DNA from: Escherichia coli
GTDB lineage: Bacteria; Pseudomonadota; Gammaproteobacteria; Enterobacterales; Enterobacteriaceae
NCBI RefSeq assembly: GCF_003334355.1
Contig: NZ_QOWP01000019.1
Strand: one strand, 5' to 3'
Length of the DNA: 64,000 bases
The notes beneath the pieces were generated by a model. That model did not search any database. It was not told the DNA's origin and worked only from the letters and a program-made list of their open reading frames with translations. Below, one piece after another: positions 15,578 to 16,918 of the stretch (positions within the stretch are counted from its first letter, which is position 1; the number at the start of each line of letters is the position of its first letter). The translations under genes were made by a program, and so were the position numbers.

Positions 15578-16918
15578 TCAATGACGGCCGAAAACGGGAC
15601 GTTTACGGTCAAAGGTCCAGCCGGGGATCAGGTACTGCATCGGACCTGCGTCGTTACGCGCACCGCCAGGCAGACGTTTATAGGCCTCATGTGCCTTTTG
15701 TACCTGTTCCCAGTCCAGTTCCACGCCCAGACCGGGCGCATCAGGAACGGCAATTTTTCCGTTTTTAATCTCCAGCGGATTTTGGGTCAGGCGACAATCG
15801 CCCTCCTGCCAAATCCAGTGGGTATCGATAGCGGTAGGATTACCCGGTGCCGCCGCGCCCACATGGGTAAACATCGCCAGAGAGATATCGAAATGGTTAT
15901 TAGAATGGCAGCCCCAGGTCAGCCCCCAGTCGTCGCAAAGCTGCGCCACACGGACTGCACCGGAAAGCGTCCAGAAGTGCGGATCGGCAAGTGGAATATC
16001 TACCGCATTGAGCATCACCGCATGACCCATTTCGCGCCAGTTGGTGGCGATCATGTTAGTCGCGACGGGCAAGCCGGTCGCCCGTCGAAATTCCGCCATC
16101 ACTTCACGTCCGGAGAAGCCCTGTTCTGCGCCGCATGGATCTTCGGCATAGGTAAGAACATCATTCAGCCCTTTGCATAAAGAAATGGCTTCATCAAGCA
16201 GCCATGCACCGTTGGGATCAACGGTAATCCGCGCATCCGGGAAGCGTTTCTTCAATGCACGAACAGTGTCGATTTCTTGCTCGCCAGGTAACACGCCGCC
16301 CTTAAGTTTGAAATCTTTAAAGCCGTAGCGATCCTGTGAGGCTTCCGCCAGACGCACAACGGCTTCGCTGTTCATTGCTTTCTGATGCCGCAACTGATAC
16401 CACTCATGGTTGCCCGGCGTATTTTCCACATAAGGAAGATCGGTTTTGGTCCGATCACCGATATAAAACAGATAACCGAGGACGGTAATAGCCTCGCGTT
16501 GCTTGCCTGGCCCTAACAGTTCGCAGACCGGAACATTCAGCGCCTTACCTAGCAGGTCAAGCAAAGCGGCTTCCAGCGCCGCCACGGCGTTAACGCGTAA
16601 TTCAAAGGTCCAGGCACCTTTACCGAAGGTATCAAAATCGGCGGCCTGATTACCTTTATGCACCTGCTGGACCACTTTATTCAGTCGCGCAACTTCCTGG
16701 CCCAGAACCATCGGAATAGCATCGACAAGCGTCTGATAAATCACATCTCCGCCCGGCGCTTCACCAATGCCGGTATGCCCGGCGTTATCGGTGAGTACCA
16801 CAATATTGCGGGTGAAATATGCGTTATGTGCCCCACCAATATTAAGCAACATGCTGTCATGCCCGGCCACCGGAATGACTTTCATATCAGTAATAACAGG
16901 ACTGGATTGTGTCGCCAT
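15578..16918 (-). CDS. gudX: Glucarate dehydratase-related protein
   Basis: ORF 15578..16933; [24 protein letters not shown], close paralog of gudD directly upstream. Confidence 0.93.

Follow-up and report, generated by a model that had tools for sequence, protein, structure and literature searches.

Why does Escherichia coli keep, between a transporter gene and the gene for its D-glucarate dehydratase, a second gene that encodes a protein of the same family and the same length? The question is raised by gudX, which lies in the 64,000-nucleotide stretch of E. coli DNA analysed here (the window; contig NZ_QOWP01000019.1, assembly GCF_003334355.1). gudX is an already known orphan paralog, and its appearance in the window is a rediscovery rather than a new system. 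A preliminary description of the window had presented it as a tandem paralog of gudD, equal in length and in one operon with gudP. The locus comprises the following features, all on the minus strand.

18273..18706 (-): region of 434 nt upstream of gudP, from the sequence reading
16920..18272 (-): gudP, MFS glucarate/galactarate/glycerate transporter, first gene of the operon (ORF and annotation)
15578..16918 (-): gudX CDS, 446 aa plus stop (ORF translation), glucarate dehydratase-related protein GlucDRP
15558..15577 (-): gudX-gudD spacer of 20 nt with the gudD Shine-Dalgarno, AAAAAGGA, which contains AAGGA
14217..15557 (-): gudD CDS, 446 aa plus stop, canonical D-glucarate dehydratase, gudD in RefSeq
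14179..14204 (-): hairpin with a perfect 10-bp stem, 13 nt past the gudD stop

The open reading frame of gudX starts with an ATG at 16918 and its stop codon ends at 15578. RefSeq gives identical boundaries, with the product name 'enolase C-terminal domain-like protein', and open reading frames and annotation agree on a tandem pair of 446 residues each. The assignment to one operon is likewise borne out: the gudP stop and the gudX ATG are one base apart, the gudX-gudD junction measures 20 nt, no promoter-like or terminator-like site was found when both junctions were scanned, and a hairpin follows gudD. This hairpin likely represents the end of the gudPXD transcript. The region upstream of gudP is presumed to be a putative CdaR-dependent gudPXD promoter region; in Salmonella, a CdaR-activated PgudTYD promoter has been described (PMC11077982).

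GudX and GudD align end to end, with 282 of 448 positions identical (63%), 78% positives, a score of 590 bits and E = 0.0. All four of the shared identical blocks that had been quoted earlier were found in both proteins, the longest identical protein run being 28 aa. At the nucleotide level, the two genes are 64.5% identical, their longest exact run is 20, and identical residues are encoded by the same codon in only 49% of the cases. Recent gene conversion was considered as the origin of the identical blocks and ruled out, because synonymous sites have diverged even in the most conserved block. The similarity is best described as ancient homology, neither chance nor recent gene conversion. GudX has the two-domain architecture of the mandelate racemase subgroup of the enolase superfamily, an N-terminal capping domain and a (beta/alpha)7beta barrel, with Pfam matches to MR_MLE_N at residues 39-136 (E = 3.4e-8) and MR_MLE_C at residues 187-404 (E = 1.5e-50). 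GudD (EC 4.2.1.40; PDB 1ec7, 1ec8, 1ec9 and 1ecq), whose sequence in the window is that of 1ec7, shares its length, fold, operon and active-site residues. The NCBIfam equivalog model for D-glucarate dehydratase (TIGR03247, EC 4.2.1.40) nevertheless separates the two, with 898.7 bits for GudD and 748.1 bits for GudX against a cutoff of 828.7; the activity that defines this isofunctional family is the efficient conversion of D-glucarate and L-idarate to 5-keto-4-deoxy-D-glucarate. This score and the generic PGAP name uphold the earlier caution against taking GudX for an isofunctional glucarate dehydratase.

In a tree rooted with an outgroup, the 43 GudX-type and the 78 GudD-type sequences each formed a monophyletic group (the X and the D clade), with the X clade as the sister of all canonical GudD sequences sampled. 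The window protein belongs to the X clade and carries its hallmark residues. The nearest outgroup has D-type residues at positions 28, 29, 102, 105, 294, 322 and 338, and the X-type residues are therefore derived. The 50%-identity representative set, which consists mostly of fragments and in which long branches drew several distant outgroups to wrong positions, is usable only for this rooting and for the polarity of the hallmarks. Over 325 species pairs, dN/dS had a median of 0.086 in gudX and of 0.069 in gudD. Accelerated evolution of GudX was considered and dropped, as the outgroup is about equally distant from both clades, the stems are short and the protein distance of GudX is merely 1.17 times that of GudD. 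As judged from tree and substitution rates, more than a simple local duplication is involved: GudX forms an ancient clade of its own, and purifying selection has acted on it with nearly the strength seen for GudD.

The distribution of the gene was surveyed within E. coli and across species. With a coverage threshold of 80%, gudX was recovered from 5409 of 5426 complete E. coli genomes (99.7%). Its reading frame is intact in all 43 species loci, the E. coli protein is 84-86% identical to those of Erwinia or Pantoea, and at least 38 species keep both gudX and gudD. As in the window, gudX typically sits between gudP and gudD: gudD is the next gene in 38 of 40 evaluable loci, and a GudP homolog is encoded directly upstream in 36 of 43 species loci, often with an ATGA stop/start overlap. 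The spacer of the 38 tandem loci has a median length of 20 nt (range 8-87) and almost always contains AAGGA or a close variant. Adjacency of the two genes is near-obligate in Enterobacterales, Pasteurellaceae, Orbaceae and Tolumonas. In S. Paratyphi A, gudT, ygcY (the Salmonella name of gudX) and gudD have been degraded together (PMC11077982). A Tn-seq study of Dickeya solani found gudP, gudX, gudD and garL to be required on galactarate (PMC10202176). We discarded this result as a gudX phenotype, because the operon there runs gudP-gudX-gudD-garL-garR-garK, with garD also present, and polar effects on garLRK account for the galactarate requirement.

The preliminary description had proposed a comparison of the catalytic residues of the two proteins and had regarded their complete conservation, combined with normal GudD activity, as the sign of simple redundancy. 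The comparison returned the first half of that pair, namely full conservation. The segments of gudX that bear on it are the following.

16820..16849 (-): '20s' capping-domain loop, GudX residues 24-33, with L28I and S29G (GudD numbering)
16574..16666 (-): '100s' capping-domain loop, GudX residues 85-115, the most GudX-specific segment
16301..16309 (-): KxK motif K204-L-K206, equivalent to GudD K205/K207, one of the two general bases
16040..16219 (-): barrel segment with the Mg2+-ligand equivalents D234, E259/E265 and N288 and the GudX-specific N293 (D294N, GudD numbering)
15899..15910 (-): C337-H338-S339-N340, in which H338 is the catalytic H339 of GudD and C337 is GudX-specific (S338C, GudD numbering)
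15656..15670 (-): C-terminal arm P417-G-G-A-R421, in which R421 is R422 of GudD and P417 is GudX-specific (G418P, GudD numbering)

The catalytic and substrate-binding residues N27, H32, T103, Y150, K205, K207, D235, N237 and E260 (GudD numbering) are identical in GudX, as are E266, N289, D313, H339, N341, D366, H368 and R422. All 16 positions that serve catalysis, metal binding or substrate binding are without variation in the 44 sequences of the GudX clade, and the loss of catalytic residues or metal ligands that marks a pseudoenzyme occurs in none of them. The KxK motif, on barrel strand 2, is invariant in these 44 and in all 79 GudD-clade sequences. The His-Asp dyad on strands 7 and 6, which acts as the other general base and is formed in GudX by H338 and D312, does not vary within the clade, nor do the equivalents of the three Mg2+ ligands at the ends of strands 3-5 (44/44). 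The ligand list itself (in GudD, D235, E266 with E260 nearby, and N289) reportedly goes back to Gulick et al. in 2000. All residues in contact with glucarate, that is N27, H32, T103, Y150, N237, N341, H368 and R422 (GudD numbering), are unchanged and clade-invariant; from the GlucD structure papers, we take R422 of GudD to be contributed to the active site of the neighbouring subunit. GudX appears to be a catalytically equipped member of the GlucD family, neither a dead pseudoenzyme nor a dying duplicate. A distinct substrate or a regulatory role had been suggested earlier. The second suggestion loses ground, as a purely regulatory, non-catalytic role is unlikely when all acid/base, Mg2+-ligand and substrate-contact residues are conserved; the first is taken up below.

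In contrast to the active-site residues, 13 alignment columns are fixed differently in the GudX and GudD clades. The changes fixed in GudX are found mostly in the two capping-domain loops, which close over the substrate, and also next to the catalytic histidine (H339), the third metal ligand (N289) and the C-terminal arginine arm (R422), whereas the GudD clade has almost no such fixed changes of its own. The discriminating columns beside catalytic residues are D294N, S338C and G418P (GudD numbering). Those in the capping loops include L28I and S29G in the 20s loop, in which N27 and H32 are invariant in both clades, and Q102W, D105E, H111N and a two-residue deletion in the 100s loop. The latter also exhibits R88H, an additional G89, I110V and T114A; its consensus is only 7-40% identical to that of GudD, while conservation inside the GudX clade reaches 0.89-0.99. 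The hallmarks of the clade are accordingly I28, G29, W102, E105, N111, A114, N294, A322, C338 and P418 (GudD numbering), together with the deletion, which follows R107. The placement of the discriminating positions in specificity loops is putative and follows general knowledge of the enolase superfamily. Co-adaptation of GudD to GudX found no support, since GudD proteins from genomes with and without GudX differ at only two conserved columns.

The GudX of the window matches, at 100% identity, the chains named 'Glucarate dehydratase-related protein' in PDB 4il0 and 4gyp (chain C of the latter). The former contains GudX alone, in 8 chains. The latter contains two GudX chains together with, by chain arithmetic, two chains of GudD, and for this reason a mixed GudD/GudX oligomer is the favoured idea. 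The contacts in this co-crystal may be no more than a legacy of the interfaces of a homotetrameric ancestor. Literature searches returned neither a paper tied to 4gyp nor open-access text on the function of GudX. Hubbard et al. reportedly found, in 1998, that purified GlucDRP acts very poorly on D-glucarate and L-idarate, and we know of no published GudX substrate from the acid-sugar library screening of the Gerlt and EFI groups. Old work on the native E. coli enzyme reportedly described a minor 2-keto-3-deoxy-D-glucarate isomer, which GarL is said to cleave as well. In many bacteria that have no GudX, GudD alone is a fully active homotetramer.

A further set of structures belongs to the same orthologous clade. 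GlucDRP of Actinobacillus succinogenes (PDB 3n6h, 3n6j and 3pfr) scores 788 bits against GudX, versus about 650 for GudD-type chains, and shares its hallmarks, including LPxGARND. It differs in coming from Pasteurellales and in being about 72% identical to GudX. PDB 3pfr presumably contains bound D-glucarate.

Taken together, we estimate a probability of roughly 0.5 that GudX is a catalytically equipped subunit of hexarate-dehydratase type, with tuned loops, that is co-expressed and assembled with GudD. GudX and GudD would be made from one CdaR-controlled gudPXD mRNA and would mix into 2:2 tetramers of the kind seen in 4gyp, so that the physiological glucarate dehydratase of Enterobacterales would be a GudD/GudX hetero-oligomer. 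In this complex, GudX would bind a D-glucarate-type hexarate with Mg2+ and catalyze abstraction of the proton alpha to a carboxylate, followed by beta-elimination of the hydroxyl group, or possibly epimerisation. Its kinetics or its preference among diastereomers may be altered relative to GudD. A more specific proposal, which we regard as unlikely, is that GudX, as a catalytic subunit with altered specificity, equips a native GudD2GudX2 enzyme with a second stereochemical or regiochemical capability. This could be a preference for another hexarate diastereomer that converges on 5-keto-4-deoxyglucarate or, alternatively, the formation of the minor 2-keto-3-deoxy-D-glucarate isomer.

The strongest competitor to a GudD-associated subunit is a stand-alone enzyme, in which case GudX would work as a homotetramer on a different acid sugar imported by GudP, for example another hexarate diastereomer, and its association with GudD would be a chance remnant of interfaces shared by both proteins. 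We consider this possible but doubtful. The concentration of fixed changes in two specificity-setting loops and next to catalytic residues is what such an enzyme would exhibit; GudX crystallises alone, and GudD bears no sign of co-adaptation. Further support comes from Halomonadaceae, whose GudX-like proteins (e.g. P0144, P0121 and P0158) form a basal branch of the GudX clade, carry 10 of 12 hallmark residues, score 700-712 bits with TIGR03247 and have the E. coli GlucDRP as their top PDB match. They differ from GudX in that a serine, not a cysteine, precedes the catalytic histidine, and their genes lie outside any gudP-gudX-gudD operon, beside a TctCBA transporter and kdgD, the gene for 5-dehydro-4-deoxyglucarate dehydratase. 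Such neighbours point to 5-keto-4-deoxyglucarate, formed from a hexarate, as the product of the clade, and count in favour of the hexarate-dehydratase-type subunit proposed above. No second GlucD homolog was found within 10 kb on each side of the GudX-clade gene in Halomonas HG01 and Kushneria, which suggests that members of the clade do not need GudD for their function.

The same neighbourhood also weighs against a different substrate. The Kushneria cluster (P0158) additionally encodes TalrD/GalrD, so that D-glucarate and L-idarate are the obvious candidates left for the GudX-like enzyme. All residues that hold glucarate are unchanged in GudX, including those for the distal carboxylate (H32, N27 and R422), and any new substrate would therefore have to be very glucarate-like. 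The acid-sugar screening has, to our knowledge, yielded no published substrate, and a merely related pathway would not call for so close an adjacency to gudD.

That loop variants of GlucD can form separate subfamilies, a further point for a stand-alone GudX, is illustrated by the long-loop GlucD subfamily of Ralstonia, Burkholderia and Negativicutes (463-472 aa; PDB 3p0w, 3nxl and 4hn8). Like GudX, its members have an intact active site and a remodelled 100s loop, and often bear a generic NCBI name. In contrast to GudX, they exhibit an insertion of roughly 17 residues, T103E and S29C, and keep D294 and S338. In the udh/garD/kdgD cluster of Ralstonia, the long-loop gene is the sole GlucD-family member, whereas in Lucifera butyrica it lies between a transporter gene and a canonical gudD, as gudX does. 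If GudX does add a second capability to a native GudD2GudX2 enzyme, the combination of a canonical GudD with a loop-remodelled paralog encoded directly downstream of a transporter gene would be a recurrent solution, since Negativicutes (Lucifera, L059) seem to have arrived at such a pairing independently.

Simple redundancy, in which GudX would be retained as an inferior second glucarate dehydratase, either in reserve or for the sake of gene dosage, would agree with the complete active site, with the operon and inducer common to both genes, and with those Halomonadaceae clusters in which the GudX-like protein is apparently the sole GlucD-family enzyme. It is nevertheless quite improbable, as it leaves unexplained the 13 positions fixed differently throughout the history of the clade and the dN/dS of 0.086. 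A mere back-up is also difficult to reconcile with the retention of both copies in at least 38 species and in 99.7% of E. coli genomes, and with the reported strong impairment of the isolated protein.

Very improbable is a non-catalytic role for GudX, as a regulatory or scaffolding pseudoenzyme ('prozyme') limited to the modulation of GudD or to the sensing of glucarate. In known prozymes, such as the trypanosomatid AdoMetDC prozyme or HisZ with HisG, a weak or inactive paralog forms a hetero-oligomer with an active sibling; these partners have lost catalytic residues and are needed for activation of the enzyme. The co-crystal with GudD, the low activity reported for isolated GudX and its score under the equivalog cutoff would suit such a role. 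However, pseudoenzymes normally lose catalytic residues, whereas GudX keeps every one of them: no change of a general base, the dyad aspartate, an Mg2+ ligand or a second-shell residue occurs in any of the 44 sequences, which come from several gammaproteobacterial orders. GudD, moreover, is fully active without GudX and requires no activator in the many bacteria that lack it.

Finally, the view of gudX as a decaying duplicate on its way to a pseudogene, for which rare disrupted or fused alleles (P0007, P0002 and P0003) and seven complete E. coli genomes without a match could be cited, is practically untenable and refuted by the intact reading frames in 43 of 43 species loci, the dN/dS of 0.086, the 84-86% identity to Erwinia or Pantoea and the presence of the gene in 5409 of 5426 genomes.

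In E. coli and Salmonella, gudX belongs to the core genes; its operon serves the use of glucarate and galactarate, two acids that have been linked to growth in the inflamed gut (PMC11077982). The question that gudX poses is now narrower. Strong selection acts on GudX, an enzyme-grade subunit of long standing that can be recognized by a few diagnostic residues and probably partners with GudD, and these residues and this partnership make its function directly testable. For the annotation of the family, two opposite errors are to be avoided: GudX-type proteins should neither be named 'glucarate dehydratase' nor be dismissed as non-functional.

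GudX, the glucarate dehydratase-related protein (GlucDRP), is best explained as an enzyme-grade subunit of the hexarate dehydratase type, with tuned loops, which is made together with the canonical D-glucarate dehydratase GudD (GlucD) and assembled with it in 2:2 tetramers. The two proteins align end to end with 63% identity (282/448, 590 bits). The equal length and shared identical blocks reported in the preliminary description were borne out: both have 446 residues, all four quoted blocks occur in both, and the longest identical run covers 28 residues. The placement of gudX in one operon with gudP was also upheld, the order being gudP-gudX-gudD, with the boundaries of all three genes as in RefSeq:

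16920-18272, minus strand, gudP
15578-16918, minus strand, gudX (ATG at 16918, 446 aa)
14217-15557, minus strand, gudD (446 aa)
14179-14204, perfect 10-bp hairpin after gudD

A single base separates the gudP stop codon from the gudX ATG, the gudX-gudD spacer is 20 bases long, with AAAAAGGA, and scanning of both junctions revealed no promoter-like or terminator-like site in either. Gene order and spacing thus suggest that gudX and gudD would be co-expressed. The window is chromosomal E. coli DNA; all 5426 complete E. coli genomes match the 4.5-kb stretch around gudX, the best with 100% identity.

The gud genes adjoin barA (11229-13985, opposite strand) downstream, and yqcA, truC and yqcC upstream. 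A REP-like palindrome, GCCGGATGCGGCGTTAACGCCTTATCCGGC, lies at 14057-14092 in the barA-gudD intergenic region, and the yqcA-gudP gap holds a 35-nt imperfect inverted repeat (18583-18669, 77% complementary, 17-nt loop), probably the yqcA terminator. At the Rfam gathering threshold, the window also contains the small RNAs CsrB (20328-20687, minus strand, 380 bits, between yqcC and syd), GcvB (38868-39073, plus strand, 199 bits) and ES036/CssrF (42089-42131, minus strand, 46.5 bits), and one tRNA (43559-43632, plus strand). The expression of csrB is under the control of BarA.

The gudX gene, its unexplained low activity, reported since 1998, and its structures are already known; an open-access literature search found no paper discussing GudX function. 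GudX is 100% identical to the "Glucarate dehydratase-related protein" chains of PDB 4il0 (8 chains) and 4gyp (2 chains). Entry 4gyp further lists the GudD sequence of 1ec7, which accounts for 18 chains across five entries; if each of the four older GudD entries is taken to hold 4 chains, 4gyp comprises two GudD and two GudX chains. The title of the entry reportedly describes a heterotetramer of GlucD with GlucDRP. GudX and GudD would be produced together and mix into 2:2 tetramers, and this mixed tetramer may well be relevant in vivo.

Pfam detects both enolase-superfamily domains in GudX, which belongs on structural and catalytic grounds to the GlucD family of the mandelate racemase subgroup. 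Its sequence identity makes it the founding member of the GlucDRP clade. It lies outside the curated isofunctional glucarate dehydratase family, since it scores 748.1 against the NCBI equivalog model (GudD 898.7, cutoff 828.7), and PGAP consequently assigns just the generic name "enolase C-terminal domain-like protein". GudX would resemble "prozyme"-type partners only in complexing with an active sibling and does not share the loss of catalytic residues that defines them.

The catalytic residues of E. coli GlucD are the general bases K207 and H339, with D313, and also K205; its Mg2+ ligands are D235, E266 (E260 nearby) and N289, and its substrate contacts N27, H32, T103, Y150, N237, N341, D366, H368 and R422. 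The comparison of catalytic and metal-ligand residues proposed in the preliminary description found every one of these identical in GudX. Each is moreover invariant in 44/44 GudX-clade sequences in an alignment of 123 homologs, drawn from 80 loci found by searching one genome per species. GudX is thus no pseudoenzyme in the usual sense, and its complete active site has been kept by selection.

The same residue is at least 90% conserved in both clades in 208 of the 449 alignment columns, and 13 columns are conserved within each clade yet differ between them. These clade-fixed (hallmark) differences, GudD residue first and in GudD numbering, are as follows:

20s capping loop: L28I, S29G
100s loop region: R88H, inserted G, Q102W, D105E, I110V, H111N, T114A (alongside these, a deletion of two residues)
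barrel and C-terminal arm: D294N, S322A, S338C, G418P

In the enolase superfamily, specificity is determined by the capping loops, which fold over the distal portion of the substrate. D294N lies five residues past the metal ligand N289, S338C immediately precedes the catalytic H339, and G418P is four residues ahead of R422. In segment 76-118 the consensus identity between clades is just 7-40%; conservation inside the GudX clade goes from 0.73 where the segment begins to 0.99 where it ends, and exceeds that of GudD from residue 104 on. The nearest outgroup has D-type residues at seven hallmark positions, which marks the GudX states as derived. GudD from genomes with GudX differs from singleton GudD in only two conserved columns; the asymmetric change is thus confined to GudX.

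GudX-type sequences form one clade (n=43) from Enterobacterales, Pasteurellaceae, Orbaceae, a Paludibacterium, a MAG and Halomonas, to which further searches added Tolumonas and other Halomonadaceae. Its sister group comprises the full set of 78 canonical GudD sequences (Gamma-, Beta- and Alphaproteobacteria, Firmicutes). When distant outgroups were added, both clades stayed monophyletic on short stems (0.078 and 0.044), at similar distances from the outgroups. In 36 of the 43 loci gudX is directly preceded by a GudP homolog, often with an ATGA overlap, and gudD follows immediately in 38, after a spacer with a Shine-Dalgarno sequence (median 20 nt, range 8-87). In Paludibacterium and Acerihabitans gudD is near gudX, non-adjacent, and one other locus is truncated. 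Tolumonas carries the whole regulon together: garD, then divergently gudP-gudX-gudD-garL-garR-garK-cdaR. The apparent requirement for gudX on galactarate in Dickeya Tn-seq comes down to polarity on garLRK, part of the longer operon there, and is evidence neither way. Degradation in S. Paratyphi A affects gudT, ygcY (as gudX is called in Salmonella) and gudD jointly (PMC11077982).

The betaproteobacterium Paludibacterium yongneupense (Neisseriales) encodes a GudX (L029:7001-8335) with 77% identity to that of E. coli and 12/12 hallmark residues; gudP (5631-6974) is upstream, and the gudD-like gene (68-1507), 5.5 kb off, is of a different, non-enterobacterial type. This suggests horizontal acquisition of gudP-gudX.

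A large basal GudX-like group occurs in Halomonas, Salinicola, Vreelandella, Chromohalobacter and Kushneria. Its proteins have 10/12 hallmark residues and E. coli GlucDRP as top PDB match, and their genes adjoin kdgD and TctCBA transporter genes. One Halomonas has a divergent D-type homolog, matching PDB 3mzn, 4.5 kb away; none was found within 10 kb in Halomonas HG01 and Kushneria, nor a second homolog within 7 kb in Halomonas eurihalina. The clade therefore appears not always to depend on GudD. The Kushneria cluster also holds a TalrD/GalrD and a KdgD, and for the glucarate/idarate step the obvious candidate there is the GudX-like protein. These clusters argue that the GudX clade is catalytically competent on a hexarate, yielding 5-keto-4-deoxyglucarate; the GudX ligand would likewise be expected to be a hexarate. 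In Halomonas and Kushneria (L081:14655-15662, L086:14456-15478) an Ldh_2-family gene follows gudX-like and tctCBA; it scores above the cutoff of the 3-dehydro-L-gulonate 2-dehydrogenase model.

The likeliest alternative, that GudX works independently on a different though still glucarate-like substrate, draws support from the stand-alone Halomonadaceae genes and from the loop changes; against it, the glucarate-binding residues are unchanged and gudX is tightly adjacent to gudD. Plain redundancy with GudD is less likely, given the clade-fixed differences and the retention of both copies. The regulatory role considered plausible in the preliminary description fares worse still, as the invariant catalytic residues speak against a non-catalytic regulator.

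A third GlucD subfamily (463-472 aa, P0380-P0494) carries T103E and S29C, and its 100s loop is lengthened by an insertion of ~17 residues. Its other catalytic residues are all intact, and NCBI frequently annotates it just as "enolase C-terminal domain-like protein"; judged on length alone, PDB 3p0w, 3nxl and 4hn8 (470-475 aa) look like members. In Lucifera butyrica (L059:5548-6954) such a gene occupies the position of gudX, flanked by an MFS transporter gene and canonical gudD, apparently through independent origin. In Ralstonia (L087:8001-9410) it is the sole GlucD-family gene of its cluster (lactonase-kdgD-aldehyde dehydrogenase-MFS-[long-loop gene]-garD-SDR (uronate-dehydrogenase-like)-lactonase).

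In Pantoea stewartii subsp. stewartii (L032:7001-8338) a single 445-aa gene, a natural chimera, replaces the gudX-gudD pair. Residues 1 to ~270 are GudX-type, with all N-terminal hallmarks (0.78-1.00 identical to Pantoea GudX), and ~280 to the end GudD-type, with D294, S322, S338 and G418 (0.80-1.00 identical to Pantoea GudD); recombination inside a long identical block, deleting one gene's worth of DNA, is the likely origin. An E. coli protein of 583 aa (P0007, 23 contigs), corresponding to window ~14217-16918, fuses GudX 1-229 (...KKRFPDA) in frame to GudD 93-446 (DRDAGGRG...), implying that one E. coli lineage lost ~0.95 kb across the gudX-gudD junction. Two longer proteins, P0002 (690 aa) and P0003 (650 aa, Salmonella "glucarate dehydratase 2"), are read-through fusions via a frameshift at the gudX 3' end and may be sequencing errors.

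Identity between the GudX and GudD of a given genome always falls in the range 62-70%. Over 780 species pairs the protein distance of GudX is 1.17 times that of GudD, and gudX has a median dN/dS of 0.086 against 0.069 in gudD (325 pairs with unsaturated dS). Synonymous sites of E. coli gudX and gudD are thoroughly diverged, even in the block with 90% protein identity, which rules out gene conversion as the source of the identical blocks and points to protein-level constraint. GudX is under strong long-term selection, and a decaying duplicate is excluded by its dN/dS and by its presence, at a coverage of at least 80%, in 5409/5426 complete E. coli genomes. Seven of the 5426 gave no gudX match and about ten others a partial one only; in NZ_AP045781.1 the 92 nt matched (89% identity) lie in gudD. 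Such rare natural gudX-minus strains could be ready-made material for phenotype tests. The comparative results sharpen the question of GudX function and leave its nature unchanged.
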